From positions 1-26,592 of the IMG/VR virus record IMGVR_UViG_3300032305_001201: a DNA stretch of 26,592 bases, one strand, 5' to 3'. The notes below the pieces were generated by a model. The model was given only the letters and a program-made list of their open reading frames with translations. It was not told the origin of the DNA and did no database searches. The first letter of the stretch is position 1; every line of letters starts with the position of its first letter. The position numbers and the translations under genes are program-made. Of this stretch, positions 4,237-25,750 are shown one piece after another. The DNA comes from a virus (lineage: Duplodnaviria; Caudoviricetes).

Positions 4237-6938
4237 AGTTCAGACAGAATGGACGTAAGAAGCACATGGCTGACAGCCGTGTAGCCATCCGATGGACATC
4301 TCTTCGTCAGCGTGTAGGTGACGTTTGCACCATTTGCTGGTTGATTTCCGGTCCACTGTGCGACAGTTGCGATCTTCGTACCACCTGCATAAGCAGTGAT
4401 CCAAGTGTCCTGATATGTAGATGGACCAGTGGATGTAAACGTCAATCCTGCGCCAGTTCCAACAGTAGTCGTAATCGCGCTGCCATTGAATGTTGCAGAC
4501 AACTGGAACGTGGTCGTTCCATTAGTCGCCCTGATGTAATAGGTGGTCGGGCCGGGAGCGGTGTATCCAGTGATTCCTCCAGAACTGCTAGTTCCGGTGA
4601 CGATAATTTCCTGCCCAACAACGAGGTTTCCAGCCTGTGTAGTGCAAGTGAAATTGCCGCTTGTATCTGTTATGGCGGTGACTGCAACTTGAATTGTTTT
4701 GATTGCAAGTTTGCTTCCCACCCAATATCCATCGCCTGTAACTGCGGTTGTTCCAGTCAGCGTGATACCAGTGGACGAAGTACTTGTAGCCACAATTTGA
4801 GATGTCTCGTTCACATACCCACCAGATAGGTGAACTGTGATGTCGGATGCGACAACAGGGTTATTGAGGTAATTCTGATAGTAAGAAGCCGCTCCAGTTC
4901 CGTACAACATCGCGGCAAAGGGAATCGACTTCTTGATATCAACCACGCACATATCAGGATTGGAAACAACCATCTGGTTGGCTGCTGCACGGACAGCCAC
5001 CAAATCAGCACCATTATTGCTCGTATCTGCGCTGTTTTGCTGTACACCAACCATCGACACAATCGCCAAATCATTCAGGCTGTAACCGAGTTCTTGCCAG
5101 ACAGCCTTGTACTTTGACCATGTCGAAGTGTGAGCGGCAGTCCACGTTGACGTAGTGTCTGCGCCGTTGATTCCCGAATGCATGAACAGCATGACTCTGC
5201 CACTTCCAGTAGCAGCAATCTGACGCTCACGAATTTCTTGCAGCCAAACACGCAATGCCGAGTTTGGGGCTTCCGTAATTACACCGGAAATTTCGGTGCT
5301 GTTCTCCCCGGACTGATAGGCATGATTGTGAACTGCAAATCCCTTTTGCACTCGATACAGTGACTGGCATAGCAACACACCCGGTCCTTGAGAAAATTGA
5401 GTACCATTGGTGTCATATCCAATTGCCGATGCACTATGCCCCTTGCCGTTTGCGGTGAATGTAGTTTCATGCACAAACGAGGTGGGTGCAGTTTCTCCCG
5501 CTCCAAGTTGCATTGACACTGCATTGGCCGTTCCAATGCCACCGTTCACCAATCTCGTAAGTGAATTCACTGAACCAGCGGAAAAGACATTAGGGATGAA
5601 GCGGCCATTGGCTGCATTGACCTTACCGTATCTCACTCGCAGTTTCTGTTCCACTCCATTTGCAGCGAGAGGATGGTTCAGGTCAACTTCGATGCCGTAA
5701 GTTTGACGCAAGGAAGTTGCCGTAGCGGGCAGGAACAGCCAATCGTCGTAATCCGCCCCCGTATTTACGGTCAGTCCGCTGGTGGTTCCAGCAGTAGTTA
5801 CAACTGGAACTCCACCACGGGTGTTGGACAACTGAAATGTTGTCGTTCCATTGGTTGCAATGATGTAATAGAACTGCGGACTTCCAGAACCCGGATTCGT
5901 GTATCCAGTGATGGTGGCTCCACTCAAGGTTCCGTAAATAGTGAGTGCTTGACCAACCTGAAATTGAGCAGCCACCGTAGTACTGAATTCACCAGCAGTG
6001 CCAGTAATGGAGATGGTTCCAGAGACTGGTTTATATTCAGTTGACGAACCGTAACTGCACTTTGGAGTGTTGAAATTCCAAACGCTATATGGCGTTGCAA
6101 GTGCATCTGGCGTAAACACCGAAGCAGTCAGGCCAGACACATAGTTGGAACTCTTTGCAATCGTCATTGACTTTGAATTCCATGTCCCATAGAACCGTGA
6201 ATCAGTATCTCGACTGCGATCAATAAATGGAGCCAGATTCGTTCCATAGCAGGGAATTCCAAGGGCAGACAAGGCTTGAGCAATTCCCGCGCTGTAACCC
6301 CAAGAACCAGCCAGAGCAGATCCGGTGTTGCTATCTCCAATCACAATCACATCGAGCGAATCAGTTCCGGCCTGCGCATCGCGAAGGAACGATGCAGCCT
6401 TCGTCGATCCATAGACGAGCGGACCATTTCCGGACACACCACTCTTGGTGAGCATTCCGAACGAACCATCGAAGATCACTTCGACGCTAGTAAGATTGGA
6501 TCCGGAAGTCAGCACGGTTCCAAGACCAATCTGTACGCCGGAATTCGCTACCGTTGCCGCAATCGGAACTGCGGGGATGCCAACTGTTTCTCCGGCGGTG
6601 TAGGTCGATTGCGCACACTTGACGGTGGCAATGCCGACCACACGAACCTTTCCAGTCTTGCCAACACTGATGCGATCAAGGGCGACCCCGTAGATGCCGA
6701 ATGCAGTGGCAATAGATGCCGCTGCGTCACGCACGACATTGGCGAACTTTGAATTCGATGCGGATCCATTTGCTGCCGACCCCTGTCCGGGAATCGACGA
6801 TGCCTGCGTCATATCAAAGCGGACGAGATCACCGATTTCGATGGCATCGACGGACCCCGCGTTTCTCACAGGGATATCGACGGTTGCGGGCTGGACTCCG
6901 AGAGTCCCCTGATTAGATGCAGAAACAATGTATGACAT
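4233..6938 (-). CDS. Virion protein: capsid-decoration-like N-domain fused to an SGNH/GDSL hydrolase-like domain with inserted beta modules
   Basis: First ~160 aa are paralogous to 6962..7447 and 9859..10353. VIVIGDSNT (block I), MHSGING (block III), DITVHL...DGYTAVS (block V); two copies of a YYIxATNGTTTFQLS module. Confidence 0.7.
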   Translation of the reverse strand: MSYIVSASNQGTLGVQPATVDIPVRNAGSVDAIEIGDLVRFDMTQASSIPGQGSAANGSASNSKFANVVRDAAASIATAFGIYGVALDRISVGKTGKVRVVGIATVKCAQSTYTAGETVGIPAVPIAATVANSGVQIGLGTVLTSGSNLTSVEVIFDGSFGMLTKSGVSGNGPLVYGSTKAASFLRDAQAGTDSLDVIVIGDSNTGSALAGSWGYSAGIAQALSALGIPCYGTNLAPFIDRSRDTDSRFYGTWNSKSMTIAKSSNYVSGLTASVFTPDALATPYSVWNFNTPKCSYGSSTEYKPVSGTISITGTAGEFSTTVAAQFQVGQALTIYGTLSGATITGYTNPGSGSPQFYYIIATNGTTTFQLSNTRGGVPVVTTAGTTSGLTVNTGADYDDWLFLPATATSLRQTYGIEVDLNHPLAANGVEQKLRVRYGKVNAANGRFIPNVFSAGSVNSLTRLVNGGIGTANAVSMQLGAGETAPTSFVHETTFTANGKGHSASAIGYDTNGTQFSQGPGVLLCQSLYRVQKGFAVHNHAYQSGENSTEISGVITEAPNSALRVWLQEIRERQIAATGSGRVMLFMHSGINGADTTSTWTAAHTSTWSKYKAVWQELGYSLNDLAIVSMVGVQQNSADTSNNGADLVAVRAAANQMVVSNPDMCVVDIKKSIPFAAMLYGTGAASYYQNYLNNPVVASDITVHLSGGYVNETSQIVATSTSSTGITLTGTTAVTGDGYWVGSKLAIKTIQVAVTAITDTSGNFTCTTQAGNLVVGQEIIVTGTSSSGGITGYTAPGPTTYYIRATNGTTTFQLSATFNGSAITTTVGTGAGLTFTSTGPSTYQDTWITAYAGGTKIATVAQWTGNQPANGANVTYTLTKRCPSDGYTAVSHVLLTSILSEL

Positions 6939-6961: not shown

Positions 6962-7447
6962 TCAGGCAAGCGTCAAACTGCCGTCAAGCATGATTTGGAT
7001 GGATGTGACCGCGCTACCGCTACTGGACAACACCGTTCCAACCTTGGCAACCGGATTTGAATTTGTAACCGTTGCTGCATCGGAACTCGTTCCGACAATT
7101 TCTCCAGCAACATAGGTCAGCGAAGAGCATTTGACGTTGGTAACTCCAACGACCATGATGTAACCGATCTGACCAGCGCGGATGTCTTCTTGGGCGACAC
7201 CGTAAATGCCACCAGCATCCGTTCCAGTAAACGGACCAACCTTGACGTTTGCGAATTTGGAATTTGACGCAGCGGTCGGAAGCGCACTTCCATTGCCCGG
7301 AAAACTAGATGGCTGCGTCAGGTCAAATCGAACAAGATCGCCAGTAACAATCGTCGTAGCCGTTTCGACGTTTCGCGCCTTTACGATTACAGAGCGAGGC
7401 TGAAGACCAAGCGTTCCCTGCGAGAATGTTGAAACAATCAATGACAT
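6962..7447 (-). CDS. Capsid decoration/cement-like protein (DUF2190-like), paralogue 2
   Basis: QGTLGLQP...GDLVRFD...SNSKFANV...GIYGVAQEDIRAGQIGYIMVVGV; aligns by eye with 9859..10353. Confidence 0.65.
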   Translation of the reverse strand: MSLIVSTFSQGTLGLQPRSVIVKARNVETATTIVTGDLVRFDLTQPSSFPGNGSALPTAASNSKFANVKVGPFTGTDAGGIYGVAQEDIRAGQIGYIMVVGVTNVKCSSLTYVAGEIVGTSSDAATVTNSNPVAKVGTVLSSSGSAVTSIQIMLDGSLTLA

Positions 7448-9858: not shown

Positions 9859-10353
9859 TCAGGTTCCGAATGCAATTACGCCGTCCAGCAGGATGCGAGG
9901 AGCAGTGGATGCTCCAGCAGTACCAACGAAGATGCCAATCTTCGTGGTAACCGTTGCATTGCTGACGTTTCCAGCGGTAATCGCACTGCCAGTCAGACCA
10001 ACTGCTTCACCAACTGCATAAGTGAGAGACGCACTGGTTGCCTGCGTGATTCCGGCAAACATCACCTTTCCATTTGCACCAGCAGCAATCGCTTCCTGCG
10101 CGACCCCATAGATACCTCCGCTAGAAGCGGCGGTAGTAGTGGGAGCGAGAGTGACGTTTGCCCACTTGGAGTTGGATGCAGAACCGAGTGCCGAAGAACC
10201 AGTACCGGGTTCTTCGCTCGTCTGTGCAAAGTCGAGACGAACGAGCGCCCACTGGGCAATAGCAGAAGAATCCTTGTTACGGCACGACAGAATGAGAGGA
10301 TTCGGCTGAATGCCGAGCGTTCCGTGATTAGATGCTTCAAGAAGAACTGACAT
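9859..10353 (-). CDS. Capsid decoration/cement-like protein (DUF2190-like), paralogue 1
   Basis: Immediately after the major capsid gene; GIYGVAQEAIAAGANGKVMFAGI motif; AAAGGA RBS. Confidence 0.7.
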   Translation of the reverse strand: MSVLLEASNHGTLGIQPNPLILSCRNKDSSAIAQWALVRLDFAQTSEEPGTGSSALGSASNSKWANVTLAPTTTAASSGGIYGVAQEAIAAGANGKVMFAGITQATSASLTYAVGEAVGLTGSAITAGNVSNATVTTKIGIFVGTAGASTAPRILLDGVIAFGT

Positions 10354-16309: not shown

Positions 16310-18384
16310 CGATTGACCTCCCAATGGCGGAAGATGTCTCCGGCAGAGCCGGGAGCGTACTGCTCCTCTGTCTGCCCGGGAACAGGGGCATCGTCCAACG
16401 CCATCCATGCCAGTGCCAATGCAATGACCCGGTCGCCGTGGTTCTCACGCGCACCCGTACTCTCGTCCCGCAACCGACCGGGGATCACCCGACCGTTGCC
16501 GTCCAGCACATAGGCCAGCATTTCGTCCATCGTTCCAGTGCAGGGAATGATGATTTCCCCCTGCTGCACCGCTCTCGACAGGTTGCCCAAGAGCAGCCGC
16601 TTGCTCTGCTCACTCGACACCCAGCCCACGCGGTCGATGATCCCGTGGGTGGTCTTGCCCTCCCGCCGGGGCTTCCACACCCGATGGAACCGCTGGGCCT
16701 CAAAGTCGCGTTGCAGGCTCTGGCCGGGGCCGTTCACCTCCCACGCCACCACCGAATCCCGGAAAGCACCCCGGCAGACATCAGCCACCTCCGCCGCAAG
16801 GTCCGCAGGGCTGATGTTGGCATCGACCATCATCGCCACCATCTGGCGGGTAGAGGCATCCAGCACCGCGACCGCGCTGGCGTGGTTACCAGTTCCATAG
16901 GCAGGGTCCATGCCCACGGCGTATGACCCCACCTCGACATCACCCCAGAGCCGCCAACGCCCGGTTGGGCTGTCCACCCACCGACCCTTGATCCAGTTCG
17001 CACGGCGTGGCTCCCGCCCAAACTCCCGCCGATGCGCCGTCACCGACACACTGGGGAAGAAGGCCGCGCCAGCACCCATCGCCTCCGCGAACACGTTCTG
17101 CGCCAGATCGATCTTGTCACGCTTGCGCAACTGATCGCCAAGCCACGGGGTCCAGACGTAAGTGCCACCAGTGACACCTGTTACGGTTCCATCAGTGTCC
17201 ACCTTCGTGACCGACCCGTTCCCCTTCTCCGGGTGCTGGTAGTACAGCATCTCGATCAGTTCAGGGTTCCCCGTCCCACGCGCCTCCGACACCAACTTGT
17301 CGTAGCGGGTTCCAAAGCCGATAGGGGTACTCACCGCTATGCGGCAGGAAGTCGTGTCCGAAGCCGAACGCCACGCAGCCTCGTCATCCTCAAGCGCGGC
17401 GAACTCGTCAAACAGCACGAAGGTGCGGCGACCACCACGGCCAATGTGCGCACCACTCGCCTGACCAGCGATAGTGGCCCCGCTCACCGGGTGACGCAAG
17501 ACCATGTGTTGTCGATATGATCCACCTTTCCTCAAGTCCGTGACGGAACATGGGAGGATCCAACCGGGCTGGGTTGAGAGCAGGTAGTCAACTTTCCAGA
17601 ACAGGCTGTCCGGGTCGCCAGACCGATCCACGTTGTCCTCCACGCGGGACACCAGCAGGCTCTGCCACCCGTGGAACAGCCACCCCCATGTCGCCAGACC
17701 AAGCACAAGCCACGATGCCCCCATGTCGCGGCTCTTCCTGATCACGGAATCACGACCGTCCTTCACACACGCGGCCAGTTTCCGGATCGATCCGATCTGC
17801 ACAGGCCACGGGACAAACGGCACATCAGCCACCTCCACCGGGCGTTCCCGCCCGTCCAAGGTGACCTCCTTCACCCGGTAGGTCCATGCGGTCATGGCGA
17901 GCCACGCTGCCGGATCGCTCTTGAACAGCGCGTACAGATCCGCCCGTTCAGCCTCGTTCGCACCACGAACCACAAAGTCACGAAGAGCAATAACATCGTT
18001 AGGGTCCGTGGGCCATGTGGGTTGGTACAGGGCTTCCGAGAACGAGTCTAGACGGCGAGGGAGAGGGGAGTGGGACTCCGGCGGCGCGGCAGGCCCGGGG
18101 GATCCGTACGGCGAGGGGCCACCCCCCGCCCCCCCCACCCCACCCCCCCCCCCCGCGCCCCGGTCGCGCTTGCCCGCCGCCCGCGCTGCCCGCATGGCCG
18201 CAGCCCGCGCCCCCCTCTCGCCCGCCTTCGCCGCGTCCACCTCCGCCGCAGTCGGCACCCCGCCCGGGTGCGCCGCCTGCCACGCCGCCCACGCCGCGCC
18301 GCCCTGCGCCCGCGCCGCATTGCGCGTGTCGCACCATGCGCGTGTCGCCCCCTTGGCCCGACCCCGCCCATCATCCTTGCGCAT
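16306..18384 (-). CDS. terL: Terminase large subunit
   Basis: Walker A IRKSRDMGASW, Walker B VLFDEFA, coupling motif VSTP, nuclease GMDPAYG / WEVNGPG / HGDRVIALALA. The start is uncertain; ATG 18384 overlaps the terS end. Confidence 0.9.
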   Translation of the reverse strand: MRKDDGRGRAKGATRAWCDTRNAARAQGGAAWAAWQAAHPGGVPTAAEVDAAKAGERGARAAAMRAARAAGKRDRGAGGGGGVGGAGGGPSPYGSPGPAAPPESHSPLPRRLDSFSEALYQPTWPTDPNDVIALRDFVVRGANEAERADLYALFKSDPAAWLAMTAWTYRVKEVTLDGRERPVEVADVPFVPWPVQIGSIRKLAACVKDGRDSVIRKSRDMGASWLVLGLATWGWLFHGWQSLLVSRVEDNVDRSGDPDSLFWKVDYLLSTQPGWILPCSVTDLRKGGSYRQHMVLRHPVSGATIAGQASGAHIGRGGRRTFVLFDEFAALEDDEAAWRSASDTTSCRIAVSTPIGFGTRYDKLVSEARGTGNPELIEMLYYQHPEKGNGSVTKVDTDGTVTGVTGGTYVWTPWLGDQLRKRDKIDLAQNVFAEAMGAGAAFFPSVSVTAHRREFGREPRRANWIKGRWVDSPTGRWRLWGDVEVGSYAVGMDPAYGTGNHASAVAVLDASTRQMVAMMVDANISPADLAAEVADVCRGAFRDSVVAWEVNGPGQSLQRDFEAQRFHRVWKPRREGKTTHGIIDRVGWVSSEQSKRLLLGNLSRAVQQGEIIIPCTGTMDEMLAYVLDGNGRVIPGRLRDESTGARENHGDRVIALALAWMALDDAPVPGQTEEQYAPGSAGDIFRHWEVNR
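18122..18154. repeat. C-tract array (C6-G-C8-A-C4-A-C12); G-quadruplex-capable on the minus strand
   Basis: Read directly: ccccccgccccccccaccccacccccccccccc. Confidence 0.9.
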
Positions 18385-18972: not shown

Positions 18973-19000
18973 TTGACTCCCTGCCGATAGGTGATACCAT
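18973..19000 (+). promoter_or_regulatory. Early promoter P1 (sigma70-like)
   Basis: TTGACT-N16-TACCAT with TGn extension; AT-richer upstream flank. Confidence 0.7.
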
Positions 19001-19048
19001 CATGCCCGTGGGCGCGTTGCCCACAGCACCCCGCACTGGAGAACACCC

Positions 19049-19279: not shown

Positions 19280-19333
19280 CCGTGCCCCGCACCGCGTCCC
19301 CTGTTCGCAGGGGGCCGGATGCGCGCCACTGTG
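19280..19333 (+). repeat. Structured intergenic element, copy A
   Basis: CCGTGCCCCGCACC...CCCCTG-TTCG-CAGGGG...GGATGCGCGCCACTGTG immediately after TAA. Confidence 0.8.
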
Positions 19334-19366
19334 GCCCGCCTCGCACCTGACACTGGAGAACCGACT

Positions 19367-19828
19367 ATGACCACCCCGACCGCTACCGTCCCATCCGCCG
19401 CCGTCACCCTGTCCATCGGCATCCTCTTCGACCTGCACGTTCGCCTGACTGCCAATGCCGCGATTCTGCGCCTCCAGTTGTGGAAGACTGCGCAGTACTG
19501 GAATTCGGAGGAGGGTCGCATCTACGCCGCGTCCGAATGGTGCGGAGAGCAGGACGCACGGGCCGATTTCCGCGAACGCAAGGAAACCGAACTGGCCGAA
19601 CTGGAAGCGGCGATTGTGTCCGCCACCGATGCCATCCGCAACGCCGGATACGTCCCCTGTACGATGGATGATCAGTCCCTACGCGGAACCATGATTCTCC
19701 TCGCGTCGAACGCGGCTGACCTTGTCACCGGAGCCGATGCATCCTGTACGCAGACTGCAAACTGGTTGCTGCGCGAACTGACCACCTGCATCGAATGCTT
19801 CAACTGCCGCAGCGACTGCCGCATCTAA
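19367..19828 (+). CDS. Early hypothetical protein (153 aa)
   Basis: ACTGGAGAAC at 19352-19361; start MTTPTAT; Cys-rich C-terminus CIECFNCRSDC. Confidence 0.75.
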   Translation: MTTPTATVPSAAVTLSIGILFDLHVRLTANAAILRLQLWKTAQYWNSEEGRIYAASEWCGEQDARADFRERKETELAELEAAIVSATDAIRNAGYVPCTMDDQSLRGTMILLASNAADLVTGADASCTQTANWLLRELTTCIECFNCRSDCRI

Positions 19829-19878
19829 CCGTGCCCCCCACCTACCCCCCGCGAGGGGGGCTAGTGGGCTGCATTGTG
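19829..19878 (+). repeat. Structured intergenic element, copy B
   Basis: CCGTGCCCCCCACCTA-C6-GCGA-G6-CTAGTGGGCTGCATTGTG immediately after TAA. Confidence 0.75.
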
Positions 19879-19910
19879 CAACCCTTCGCACCTGACTGGA
19901 GAACCTGACC

Positions 19911-20270
19911 ATGCCCCGATTCGTCTGCAACAACACCGAACGCACCTCACTGGAATTCACCCACAACGCCGAAATGCGTGACCTCGCCCGCCCCGCAACC
20001 ATCATCGTTTCACATATTTGCGCCGAAATGAACCGGGACATAGCCGTGTTGCGGTCTGCATGGACATCGTCCCAGTGGAGCGTAAACCTGACCGTCACCC
20101 GTATGCGAATCCTCTCCGACCGGATCGGATCCCGCATCGACCTCCTCTTCCGAACGGGCTTCATCACCGTGGAATCGTACGCCGCCATGCATGGGGAGGC
20201 GAAGGAAGCACACTCCGCCGCCCTCGCCCGCCGTGCAAACGCCCTCGCCCGTGGGAAGGTGACCGCCTAA
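19911..20270 (+). CDS. Early hypothetical protein (119 aa)
   Basis: ACTGGAGAAC at 19895-19904. Confidence 0.75.
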   Translation: MPRFVCNNTERTSLEFTHNAEMRDLARPATIIVSHICAEMNRDIAVLRSAWTSSQWSVNLTVTRMRILSDRIGSRIDLLFRTGFITVESYAAMHGEAKEAHSAALARRANALARGKVTA

Positions 20271-20272
20271 CG

Positions 20273-20327
20273 CCGTGCCCCGCACCTGTCCCCGGCCCAC
20301 GCCGGGGGCGGGATGCGCGACACTGTG
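20273..20327 (+). repeat. Structured intergenic element, copy C
   Basis: CCGTGCCCCGCACCTGT-CCCCGGC-CCAC-GCCGGGG-GCGGGATGCGCGACACTGTG, 2 nt after TAA. Confidence 0.8.
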
Positions 20328-20387
20328 TCCGCAAGTCTAGTTCCGATAGCCTGTTACAGAAATTCTACAATCCTACTGAATTTCCTG

Positions 20388-20415
20388 TTGACATACTGCC
20401 GATAGACTGTAAAGT
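20388..20415 (+). promoter_or_regulatory. Early promoter P2 (sigma70-like)
   Basis: TTGACA-N16-TAAAGT; followed by the inverted repeat GGTCGGA-ACG-TCCGACC (20424-20440). Confidence 0.72.
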
Positions 20416-20468
20416 ACTCACATGGTCGGAACGTCCGACCGATTCACCCCTCACTGGAGAACCTCACT

Positions 20469-21485
20469 ATGGCACATCAGATCCGCAACAACGACCACCT
20501 TGTCCTCGCCGGGAAGTCCGCATGGCACGGACTGGGAACCGTGACGGAGGGCGCACCCAACCCCTTCGCCGCGCTCCGCCTCGCCCGACTGGAATGGGAC
20601 GTCCTCCCCTCCGCATCCATCTCCGGCATCTTCAACCCCGGCGAGACCGACGAATTCCGCGTCTCCACTGACACCGCGCAAGTACTGGTGCGGTCAGACG
20701 ATAAGTCCGTACTGGGCGTGGTCGGCCCCGACTACACCCCGGTGCAGAATTCGCAACTGGCCGAACTGGCCTACGCCCTGCGGGACGCGGGTTCTGACAG
20801 GGGTGTGGAGATCGAATCCGCCGGATCCCTGTACGGCGGTCGCCGGGTGTGGTTCTTGATCCGCGCCGCGTCCATCGAAATGGGCGGCAAGGGAGACGCG
20901 ACCGTCCCCTACTTCATGCTCACCAACGCGCACGATGGTACGGCCAGTCTACAGGGACTGGGTACGGGTACGCGGGTGGTGTGCGCAAACACCATGCGCA
21001 TCGCACTGGGCGAAGCGAAGGATCGCATTGCGTTCCGCCACACCTCCGGCATCGGGACGCGGGTGGAGGAAATGGCGGGCATTATCAAACAGTGGTTCGC
21101 GAACATGGAGAAGGGGCAGGCTGTCGCCTCCCGCCTCGCGGCCAAGCCCATGAACCGCGCTGCCATCCAAGCCCTGTGGGTGGAGGTGGTGCAGCGACTG
21201 GACGGCGAGATCCCGAACAACCCCACCAACGGGTGGGAGGAGACGCGCCGCGAGAAGGCGGTGGTGGGCCTCGCGCACATGGCGCAGGTGTTCGACCGCG
21301 AGTCGCAGCAGTACGGCGCGAACCTGTGGGTGGCGGCGAACGCGGCGACGAACTGGGTGCAGCACGTTCGCAGCCAGTACGCCATCCGCAAGGGTGACAG
21401 CACCGCCCGGGCCTACGCCCAGTGGAACGGCAGCACCGCCGACGATTCCGCCGAAGTGTGGAAGGTCGCGACCGCCGCAGTGTGA
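20469..21485 (+). CDS. DUF932/DUF945 family phage/plasmid protein
   Basis: AWHGLG, LEWDV, VLGVVGPDYTPVQN, ESAGSLYGGRRVWFL, LTNAHDG, RVVCANT, FRHT motifs; ACTGGAGAAC at 20453-20462. Confidence 0.85.
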   Translation: MAHQIRNNDHLVLAGKSAWHGLGTVTEGAPNPFAALRLARLEWDVLPSASISGIFNPGETDEFRVSTDTAQVLVRSDDKSVLGVVGPDYTPVQNSQLAELAYALRDAGSDRGVEIESAGSLYGGRRVWFLIRAASIEMGGKGDATVPYFMLTNAHDGTASLQGLGTGTRVVCANTMRIALGEAKDRIAFRHTSGIGTRVEEMAGIIKQWFANMEKGQAVASRLAAKPMNRAAIQALWVEVVQRLDGEIPNNPTNGWEETRREKAVVGLAHMAQVFDRESQQYGANLWVAANAATNWVQHVRSQYAIRKGDSTARAYAQWNGSTADDSAEVWKVATAAV

Positions 21486-21487
21486 GG

Positions 21488-21561
21488 CGACTGGTGCGCG
21501 GTCACCCCTCCCCCCGAAGTGGGGGAGGGGGATCCGCGAGTCAGTCGGGACGAATCCCGAC
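21488..21561 (+). other. Long intergenic hairpin overlapped by a second hairpin
   Basis: CGACTG/CAGTCG, CGCGG/CCGCG and CCCCTCCCCC/GGGGGAGGGG arms (21488-21547); GTCGGGA-CGAA-TCCCGAC at 21544-21561. Confidence 0.7.
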
Positions 21562-21589
21562 AGTACTGCGCAACTTACTGGAGAACCCT

Positions 21590-21901
21590 ATGCGACCCGA
21601 CCCCAAGATCGACACCCTGCGTACCGACCTCACCGCCTCCGTGTCCGGAACCGTCCACCGCCTGATCGAATGGCGCAAGCGTATGCAAACTGGGGGGATG
21701 CACGTTCCCGCCCGCCGCATCATCATGCGGGACATCGAACGCGCCCGGTGGCTCATCGATTTCTGCACCCCTATCACGACTGACGAGGAGCGGAAGGCAT
21801 TGCGATCCGCCCTCGCGAATGCGGAAGGGTACGCGCTGTTCCTGTTGGAGCAGCGAACCCAAGCCCGCAAGGCATTGGCCGCATCGATGCGTAACTCCTG
21901 A
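21590..21901 (+). CDS. Early hypothetical protein (103 aa)
   Basis: ACTGGAGAAC at 21577-21586; start MRPDPKID. Confidence 0.72.
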   Translation: MRPDPKIDTLRTDLTASVSGTVHRLIEWRKRMQTGGMHVPARRIIMRDIERARWLIDFCTPITTDEERKALRSALANAEGYALFLLEQRTQARKALAASMRNS

Positions 21902-21947
21902 TTTCATCTAGGCTTACAGAAATCTACAAACTTTCCTGTATTACCTA

Positions 21948-21975
21948 TTGACTTCCTGTCTACTTGTGGTAGACT
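21948..21975 (+). promoter_or_regulatory. Early promoter P3 (sigma70-like)
   Basis: TTGACT-N16-TAGACT with TGn extension; followed by GTCGGA-ACG-TCCGAC (21982-21996). Confidence 0.75.
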
Positions 21976-22022
21976 GCACTAGTCGGAACGTCCGACATCA
22001 CCCCTTACTGGAGAACCTGACC

Positions 22023-22481
22023 ATGAAGACCACCAAGTTGGAACACCTGCGCAAGATTCAGTCCGATGCATACGAAATTCTGTGCGAAGCAGTCACTGCG
22101 TTGGACATCGCGAAGCAGAAGTATCGAGAGGCAACCACTGCCTATGCCACCCAGTGCCGTGCGTGTGCCAATCGCAAGCAGGCAAAGCCGCGCCACAAGT
22201 ACCTCGCTGCCGTGCGCGATTCTTACGGCGACAGCACGGACACCGAATCGTTCTCCGCCAAGTCGGAAGCAATGGACTGGGCGAAGCGCAACCTGAAGAC
22301 CATCGACCCGGGCTGCTCCGTCACGGTGGAGCGGGTCACCCTGTCCGACATGACCTACGCCACCGTGTGGACGGCGGGCAATGCCCAGTCCATCGCCCGG
22401 TGGAACGGGGACGAAGACATCGAAGACCCGTGTGACGCAGCGCACCGTGCTTTCGTGAACGCCAACGACCTGACCGACTGA
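22023..22481 (+). CDS. Early hypothetical protein (152 aa)
   Basis: ACTGGAGAAC at 22007-22016; start MKTTKLEH. Confidence 0.75.
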   Translation: MKTTKLEHLRKIQSDAYEILCEAVTALDIAKQKYREATTAYATQCRACANRKQAKPRHKYLAAVRDSYGDSTDTESFSAKSEAMDWAKRNLKTIDPGCSVTVERVTLSDMTYATVWTAGNAQSIARWNGDEDIEDPCDAAHRAFVNANDLTD

Positions 22482-22506
22482 CTCACCCGCAACTGGAGAA
22501 CCAACC

Positions 22507-22722
22507 ATGAAGACCACCATCACCATTACTATGGAAATCGACGGCATCGATCCGAAGTCAGACGCGGCTAGCACATTCCTTGACCATGTCGAATCGGAGT
22601 TCGACCGGACGGCAGACAAACTGCAACGCGTTGCAGTTCCCCCTCTTCACTGCATCAACCGCTACTGGTTCGCCATCGAAGGCGGCGAGACTCGCCACAT
22701 GCCGGACGATCAGGACTGCTGA
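22507..22722 (+). CDS. Early hypothetical protein (71 aa, acidic)
   Basis: ACTGGAGAAC at 22492-22501. Confidence 0.72.
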   Translation: MKTTITITMEIDGIDPKSDAASTFLDHVESEFDRTADKLQRVAVPPLHCINRYWFAIEGGETRHMPDDQDC

Positions 22723-22774
22723 CCGTGTTCCCCACCTGTCCACCCACTGGGTGGGCGGGATGGGCAACACTGTG
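22723..22774 (+). repeat. Structured intergenic element, copy D
   Basis: CCGTGTTCCCCACCTGT-CCACCC-ACT-GGGTGG-GCGGGATGGGCAACACTGTG immediately after TGA. Confidence 0.8.
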
Positions 22775-22805
22775 TAGCCCTATCGCACTTACTGGAGAAC
22801 CGACC

Positions 22806-23302: not shown

Positions 23303-23615
23303 TCTCACCGCCCTGTCGATGGTGACCGCCGTCTACGGATCGACCATCTTTCAGGTCGATGACAACTTCGTGGTATGGAGTTCGGGAATCGCTGTGAAAC
23401 TGGACAAGGGTGCATGGGTTGGATCCAGTTTCGAGACTTGGCCCGGGGTCAACCCGCCGTGGAACCCGGTGTCCGCCCCGGTGCAGGTGTCCGCCCCGGT
23501 GGTGTCGGCTCCGGTGCAGGTGTTCACCATGCCCACGCCATCGGCCTCGCCCCGGGTGGTACGCCATCACTTCACGGTGGCGGGGCAGTCGGTAGTCTAC
23601 GAAACCACGCCTTGA
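23289..23615 (+). CDS. Hypothetical protein with VSAPV(Q) repeats
   Basis: GGAGGGAG RBS before ATG 23289; ends just before the terminator. Confidence 0.6.
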   Translation: MPLGNLTALSMVTAVYGSTIFQVDDNFVVWSSGIAVKLDKGAWVGSSFETWPGVNPPWNPVSAPVQVSAPVVSAPVQVFTMPTPSASPRVVRHHFTVAGQSVVYETTP

Positions 23616-23628
23616 GAGGGACGCGAAC

Positions 23629-23662
23629 AAGCCCCCGGCTAACGCCGGGGGTTTTTGTTTTT
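23629..23662 (+). terminator. Rho-independent terminator closing the early island
   Basis: CCCCCGGC-TAAC-GCCGGGGG followed by TTTTTGTTTTT, at the convergence of the + and - blocks. Confidence 0.88.
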
Positions 23663-25410: not shown

Positions 25411-25750
25411 GTGATGCTCCTACCGGAAAGAGAAACTCCGACTTCGCGACTTCCCATACACGGGCGGAACGGCCCGACCGTGTCTTGCGATATCCGTGCG
25501 CAACTATCAGGCCATCATTCATCAGGTTGTTGACCGATGCAGAGCAAGTCTGATGCGACAATCCAAGTCGCTGTTCCAGTTCGTCGCAGGTGCTTGGAAG
25601 TTCTTCCAGTGCTGCGAGAACCTTCGCGTTGATCGTCCCGATCCGTGGCTGAACGGATGACCACGCTTCGTCCTGCGTGTCCCACCGCGTGGCCTGCCCC
25701 CGCGTCTTGCGGGGGGGCAGGCCATCGGCAGCAAGGTTCTCATTGCTCAT
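25397..25750 (-). CDS. Winged-helix DNA-binding protein
   Basis: TCDELEQRLGLSHQTCSASVNNLMNDGLIVAHGYRKTRSGRSARVW; GGAG RBS before ATG 25750. Confidence 0.7.
   Translation of the reverse strand: MSNENLAADGLPPRKTRGQATRWDTQDEAWSSVQPRIGTINAKVLAALEELPSTCDELEQRLGLSHQTCSASVNNLMNDGLIVAHGYRKTRSGRSARVWEVAKSEFLFPVGASHGND

Follow-up and report, generated by a model that had tools for sequence, protein, structure and literature searches.

The plus-strand island of small genes in the virus record IMGVR_UViG_3300032305_001201 (Duplodnaviria; Caudoviricetes) raises the question of what the structured elements are that recur there between a stop codon and the next ribosome-binding site (RBS). Positions 1 to 26,592 of the record were analysed as a whole (the window, 26,592 nucleotides); it is a fragment of a tailed phage with a full genome of ~40 kb, and the island can be read as an early-gene array. 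The original prediction had described four copies (A to D) of an RNA or single-stranded DNA element and had named an RNase III-type processing site, a protein-binding RNA motif or a folded single-stranded DNA recombination site as its possible identity. Our analysis showed that the element is real and that it represents an uncatalogued family of cis-acting RNAs within one phage group. The 3' strand of its stem has two alternative partners, and the evidence favours a two-state element in which a second hairpin competes, not one static stem. We consider it moderately probable that the elements are T7-like RNase III-type processing sites of the phage early operon with refolding of the product.

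The layout of the element is stop codon, strand a, apical hairpin H1, bulge, strand a*, strand a', a C/A-rich linker and GGAG. Strand a* can pair with the 5' strand a or with a', a near-repeat downstream, which was not part of the earlier description. A pattern search returned the four copies at the starts predicted (19280-19333, 19829-19878, 20273-20327 and 22723-22774, plus strand), compared with no match in 100 dinucleotide shuffles. The CCGTG start follows the stop codon by 0, 0, 2 and 0 nt in A, B, C and D, respectively. The C.C opposition in all four copies, the stem change between CGCA/TGCG (A and C) and CCCA/TGGG (B and D), the bulged A in A, C and D, the loops UUCG, GCGA, CCAC and ACU and the absence of a following U-tract all read as described, and the terminator scan lists none of the hairpins A to E. 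TGTG had been taken as the end of the element, which in fact extends 5-6 nt further, into the second hairpin. The count of four copies stands, but a hairpin of the same layout and different sequence in the same interval (E) had been missed; it reaches ~10-11 bits under the model of the four-copy family and is not scored as a member. The 5' arms of A to D measure 20-22 nt. The folding z-scores on the plus strand are -1.95, -2.21, -3.94 and -3.87 for A, B, C and D, and that of hairpin E is -5.2 (-2.3 for its 3' part). The coordinates are collected in Table 1.

Table 1. Elements, promoters and genes of the window (positions as in the record; promoters are consensus matches only).
Feature	Position	Strand	Details
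Copy A	19280..19339	+	strand a 19280-19291; H1 19292-19318, 11 bp; bulged A 19319; a* from 19320; a*:a' hairpin 19321-19339
Copy B	19829..19884	+	H1 shorter, 9 bp, GCGA loop, bulge shifted to 5' side; alternative hairpin 19866-19884
Copy C	20273..20332	+	H1 20285-20312, 12 bp; bulged A 20313; alternative hairpin 20314/20315-20332; promoter P2 precedes next RBS
Copy D	22723..22780	+	H1 22735-22759, 11 bp; bulged A 22760; alternative hairpin 22762-22780
Hairpin E, after DUF932 stop	21488..21570	+	other sequence, same long stem and competing 3' hairpin 21536-21570
P1, sigma70-like promoter	18973-19000	+	start hairpin 19008-19024
P2, sigma70-like promoter	20388-20415	+	start hairpin 20424-20440
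P3, sigma70-like promoter	21948-21975	+	start hairpin 21982-21996
Ribosome-binding motif ACTGGAGAAC	19352..19361	+	also 19035, 19895, 21577, 22791, before other array genes
DUF932 gene (PF06067)	20469..21485	+	conserved array anchor
Island of small orphan genes and one DUF932 gene	19049 to ~23630	+	
Ordinary U-tract terminator at array end	23629..23654	+	faces converging minus-strand genes; internal contrast to A-E
Terminase, capsid, adaptor and tail-fibre genes, weak portal match		-	
ERF, RusA and HNH genes	right end of window		

Related phage loci were gathered by pattern and protein searches (L019, one of three metagenome pattern matches, was a chance match). As the original prediction had proposed, a covariance model was built; its 31 seeds were picked from a loose generic scan (537 matches), and it returned 126 matches in 95 sources, many of which stop short of the early array. 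The 36 weak (<=30 bits) or reverse-strand matches were dropped before all counts. The 90 matches kept, at >=34 bits, represent 53 distinct sequences from 35 sources, which correspond to 29 contigs including the window. All the copies sit on the mRNA strand, and the matches are confined to the early array in all four near-complete relatives. A stop codon lies at most 3 nt before the copy in 46 of the 53 distinct sequences, and GGAG follows within 40 nt in 43. G.U pairs make up 65 of 578 pairs on the mRNA strand compared with one on the opposite strand.

In the stem of four pairs below the bulge, the successive positions are paired in 53, 51, 52 and 53 of the 53 variants. Its second pair is G-C, C-G or U-A and its fourth pair is A-U or G-C, giving the covarying combinations CGCA/TGCG, CCCA/TGGG, CCCG/CGGG and CTCG/CGAG. 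The covariation of 0.269, against 0.093 after shuffling (0/500 shuffles as high, in a control that ignores relatedness), agrees with the claim that the structure is under selection. The mismatches had been called fixed; their positions and that of the bulge are kept across relatives, but the letters are not. Among 31 GTG-type variants, 29 have no pair at the position of the C.C mismatch (C.C itself in 23), and the bulge column is an A in 38/53. H1 has 11-12 bp in 37/53 and at least 11 bp in 39/53, being shorter in 14/53. A hybrid copy, CGCA/TGGG with a G.G mismatch, was also seen (L008:1773-1826 and L015:4306-4359); it is likely a recombinant of two copies.

The element matches no catalogued family. 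Rfam searches gave three weak matches in the window, all far below the gathering score and none on an element, and no match in five relatives. A U-tract intrinsic terminator was rejected, as a U-tract follows only 1/53 copies. REP/BIME elements are defined by dispersed copies and a Y1 transposase; the confinement of the matches to the array and the finding of PF01797 in 0/4 near-complete relatives reject this class. A self-cleaving ribozyme was also rejected, with no Rfam match and no core motif recognised by eye.

Comparisons of the three strands suggest that a, a* and a' change together. When 56 variants were folded, the three letters made up by the S2 pair and the partner downstream of it were G/C/G in 35 cases and C/G/C in 15; CGCA/TGCG stems have their downstream partner in CGC, and CCCA/TGGG stems mostly in CCC. 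A fold-free reading of the three-strand states agrees in 31 of 34 scorable rows, with 20 rows ambiguous. Joint variation is seen as well in the inner pairs of the second hairpin (GC 8, AT 7, TA 3, CG 1 and unpaired 5, n=24). The 24-nt tails fold better than shuffles with a mean z of -2.2, 50 of the 56 lying below -1 and none above 0, and a*:a' has an energy of -8.8 kcal/mol in cognate and -5.6 kcal/mol in non-cognate combinations. The two folds are near-equal (mean difference -1.3 kcal/mol), the long form winning in 35/56 and the two-hairpin fold in 21/56. Hairpins of other sequence that occupy the same slots have a second hairpin (tail z < -1) in 19/25 when they have no U-tail; it occurs in 0/6 of those with a U-tail, which have neither pairing.

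The second hairpin resembles the 5' ends of the promoter-derived leaders. Among 51 promoter-like sites upstream of GGAG in the window and relatives, a hairpin begins 5-9 nt after the -10 box in 45. These start hairpins have 6-10 bp and are followed by a C/A-rich linker and GGAG, with a median of 7 bp and 15 nt to GGAG. An RNA cut at the bulge would start with a hairpin of the same median length, 7 bp, at 14 nt from GGAG. When a fixed leader test was applied, 44/51 promoter leaders passed compared with 39% of shuffles, and 35/44 predicted cut products compared with 21%. For cleavage at the bulge, the new 5' end is predicted to be paired within 2 nt in 42/43. The simplest reading is that cutting comes first and that a*:a' then forms as a hairpin at the 5' terminus. 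Strand a' is lost in three copies that precede a promoter (L032:7663, L052:6290 and L065:1066). In the promoter leaders of five more distant relatives (L100, L102, L104, L105 and L106), another small hairpin, with a CGGAC/GGAC loop, directly precedes the RBS and is possibly a protein-binding motif.

In the processing model the host RNA polymerase would read the array from P1-P3, and H1 lengthened by a:a* would form an irregular stem some two helical turns long. The 3' side would then receive a single nick from a double-strand RNase of the host (probably RNase III), at the bulge or one base after it (predicted at 19319-19321 in A, 19864-19866 in B, 20313-20315 in C and 22760-22762 in D). The enzyme would be the host's, as none of the four near-complete genomes encodes an RNase III. 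The upstream mRNA would retain H1 as an 11-12 bp hairpin and 3' barrier, the weak, mismatched a:a* would release a*, and a*:a' would cap the new 5' end. The outcome would be stable single-gene messages with a 5' leader like that of a primary transcript. It is plausible, and put forward here tentatively, that each element is a self-capping cassette, in which a* serves upstream as part of the nuclease substrate and then, once cut, downstream as a 5' hairpin that copies the promoter leaders, so that one nick would protect both ends. H1 and the second hairpin could stack end to end, and with a ribosome on the upstream stop codon the site might therefore remain open to cleavage or act as a switch point. 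A cut at the C.C mismatch is rated lower than one at the bulge: it would place A-U at proximal-box position pb2 in 47/53 but leave the covarying S2' strand upstream.

RNase III-type processing is the best of the three identities first proposed, and the geometry fits it. According to the accessible parts of the sources, E. coli RNase III needs a helix of at least 11 bp from cut to loop, cleavage at a bulge is single and leaves a protective hairpin at the 3' end (PMC1540722, PMC3867540), and two helical turns and cleavage of coaxially stacked helices are described with T7 R1.1 as the model (PMC1540722, PMC3867540, PMC8708148). Like the T7 early signals (R1.1 and kin) in these accounts, the elements lie between the genes of a polycistronic early transcript, the promoters of which are consensus matches only, and form irregular stems of roughly two turns on the mRNA strand. 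An interruption lies ~11 bp from the loop (at least 11 bp from loop to site plus a bulge or loop at the site in 39/53), and a single cut leaving a 3' hairpin is predicted. The elements differ from the T7 signals in being GC-rich, in failing the E. coli box preferences and in having an interruption that is often one bulged base; the downstream repeat a', which would refold the cut product into a 5' hairpin, is not described for T7 in the excerpts available. The element may therefore work like a T7-type site but is not filed as a member. Sites of the host RNase III in the early mRNA of the Bacillus phage SP82 are likewise connected with the stability of the mRNA and with a strong RBS (PMC4838370, PMC7509114), in sources that mention SP82 only briefly; their sequence is unrelated as far as known.

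Several results weigh against processing with refolding. The E. coli proximal box is poorly matched in the expected register, with A-U/U-A at pb2 in 9/53 and at pb4 in 3/53, by a consensus that is E. coli's and may not be the host's; a G-C at pb1 (35/53) is the only fitting box position. The canonical distal box (UA/UG) was not found in the expected register in the 53 variants. Aquifex RNase III ignores the distal box and still requires the proximal one, as far as the partial source goes (PMC3074117), so the box mismatch is a real objection. B-type copies with a 9-bp H1 account for 7/53. When the full leader of 36-46 nt is folded, the second hairpin of A to D is no better than shuffles (z -0.2 to -0.4), and copy C retains a' despite the promoter downstream. 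Model seeds make up 31 of the 53 variants, and the counts are not independent because the copies recombine; a tree-aware covariation test found three supported independent differing pairs, all in the same direction (p = 0.25, underpowered). The RNA data, from one run with a share of 0.05, consist of three short contigs, none over an element, with no RNA ends observed.

An unlikely alternative, though the best placed, is that the elements are uncut and act as a translation-coupled switch or pause-attenuator. A ribosome at the stop codon would cover a and free a* for a', and the choice of fold would tune read-through into the next gene or decay. The start of strand a 0-3 nt after the stop codon and the near-equal energies suit a switch, but the predicted accessibility of GGAG is alike with and without a and H1 (0.34 vs 0.38), and the resemblance of a*:a' to promoter leaders is left unexplained. 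Attenuation gains from terminator-like hairpins with a U-tail and a similar apical stem, which fill the slot after DUF932 and are followed by an RBS with no promoter (L092:7015-7084, L096:4307-4376, L097:6508-6588 and L098:4871-4951), and from the PeSL stem-loops of T4-type phages, which terminate according to the part of PMC2839356 available. Against it stand the near absence of U-tracts from the family itself and the genes after A, B, D and E, none of which has its own promoter in the scan.

Two static tandem hairpins acting as exonuclease roadblocks, with ends that come from decay trimming and no site-specific cut, are decidedly improbable. Terminal hairpins do stabilise mRNA (PMC7509114, as excerpted), and the two-hairpin fold is the preferred one in the 21 variants mentioned above. 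However, a static two-hairpin fold needs no a:a* pairing, yet these pairs covary too, and the length of H1 clusters at 11-12 bp.

An internal promoter (of hairpin type or for an alternative sigma factor) with its +1 at the H1/a* junction has little probability. The 5' hairpin and the leader geometry would also follow from a primary start at this point, and the closest relative carries an orphan protein of 2664 aa, but searches by motif, family and structure gave this protein no RNA polymerase match, and it resembles large polyvalent proteins; A.C mismatches would arise on the template strand, the loops are variable, and there would be no need for a:a* to pair. The orphan itself (L110:4834-12828, minus strand, genome G001) has no Pfam, PHROG or PDB match, and its Atlas neighbours are phage large polyvalent proteins.

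A folded single-stranded DNA recombination site that moves gene cassettes is scarcely credible: the elements do recall integron attC sites in starting at a stop codon, in their imperfect hairpin with stem, mismatch, extra base and variable top and in lying between variable genes that differ among close relatives, and RYYYAAC precedes 12/53 copies, but the attC core GTTRRRY occurs in 0/53, the G.T pairs lie on the top (mRNA) strand, opposite to attC as described in the portion of PMC5027507 at hand, integrases and other tyrosine, serine or Y1 recombinases were found in 0/4 near-complete relatives, and swaps mostly break elsewhere.

Comparisons of close relatives with 93-99% identical DUF932 showed different genes between the same elements. 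Most ends of the homology blocks fall on the RBS/ATG repeat or on a stop codon, and this is seen at junctions that lack a hairpin too; three of the block ends listed lie inside an element. ERF and RusA are present and no site-specific recombinase was found in the four near-complete relatives, so ordinary homologous exchange explains the swaps, as it does for the PeSLs in the available text of PMC2839356. The PeSL cassettes of RB49/phi1 described there are also repeated units of stop codon, stem-loop and Shine-Dalgarno sequence with poly-C/poly-G stems in a shuffled, hyperplastic early region, and the present elements likewise border shuffled genes in such a region. PeSLs hold a promoter and terminate, whereas most elements here have neither a promoter nor a U-tract, and the swaps occur mainly at the RBS repeat. 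Only copy C has a sigma70 promoter near it, 56 nt downstream.

No cultured relatives of the phage were found, the best matches being <=33% identical. Gemmatimonas was considered as the host, but the sole genome matches, two short contigs in one metagenome-assembled genome so titled, are too weak for a host call. A tRNA scan of the window gave none. On the minus strand, a long GC-rich hairpin (25675-25738) follows the ERF stop codon with no U-tract; its 3' part is also able to refold, and it is present in L008. Three structural genes have a similar start (repeat D2; 6889-6938, 7398-7447 and 10304-10353), two of them being cement-protein paralogues. The terminase gene contains a C-rich run (18124-18160) towards its front, and the last gene of the array has a short tandem repeat (23468-23528) close to its end.

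The literature searched holds no account of the element family or of refolding after a cut; the subscription originals on T7, SP82 and SPO1 and the supplements were outside the search. The element probably belongs to a known kind of signal for processing and stabilisation, with a two-state design added that was not found within that scope. Since the general class is ordinary, the value of the element lies in this design. A protective 3' hairpin is already known from phage RNase III sites; the cassettes would also cap the 5' end by strand exchange, at a site predicted to within a base or two. If true, this would explain the strong expression of a swappable array of small early genes regardless of gene order, and it would provide a 60-nt part for making stable single-gene messages out of an operon.

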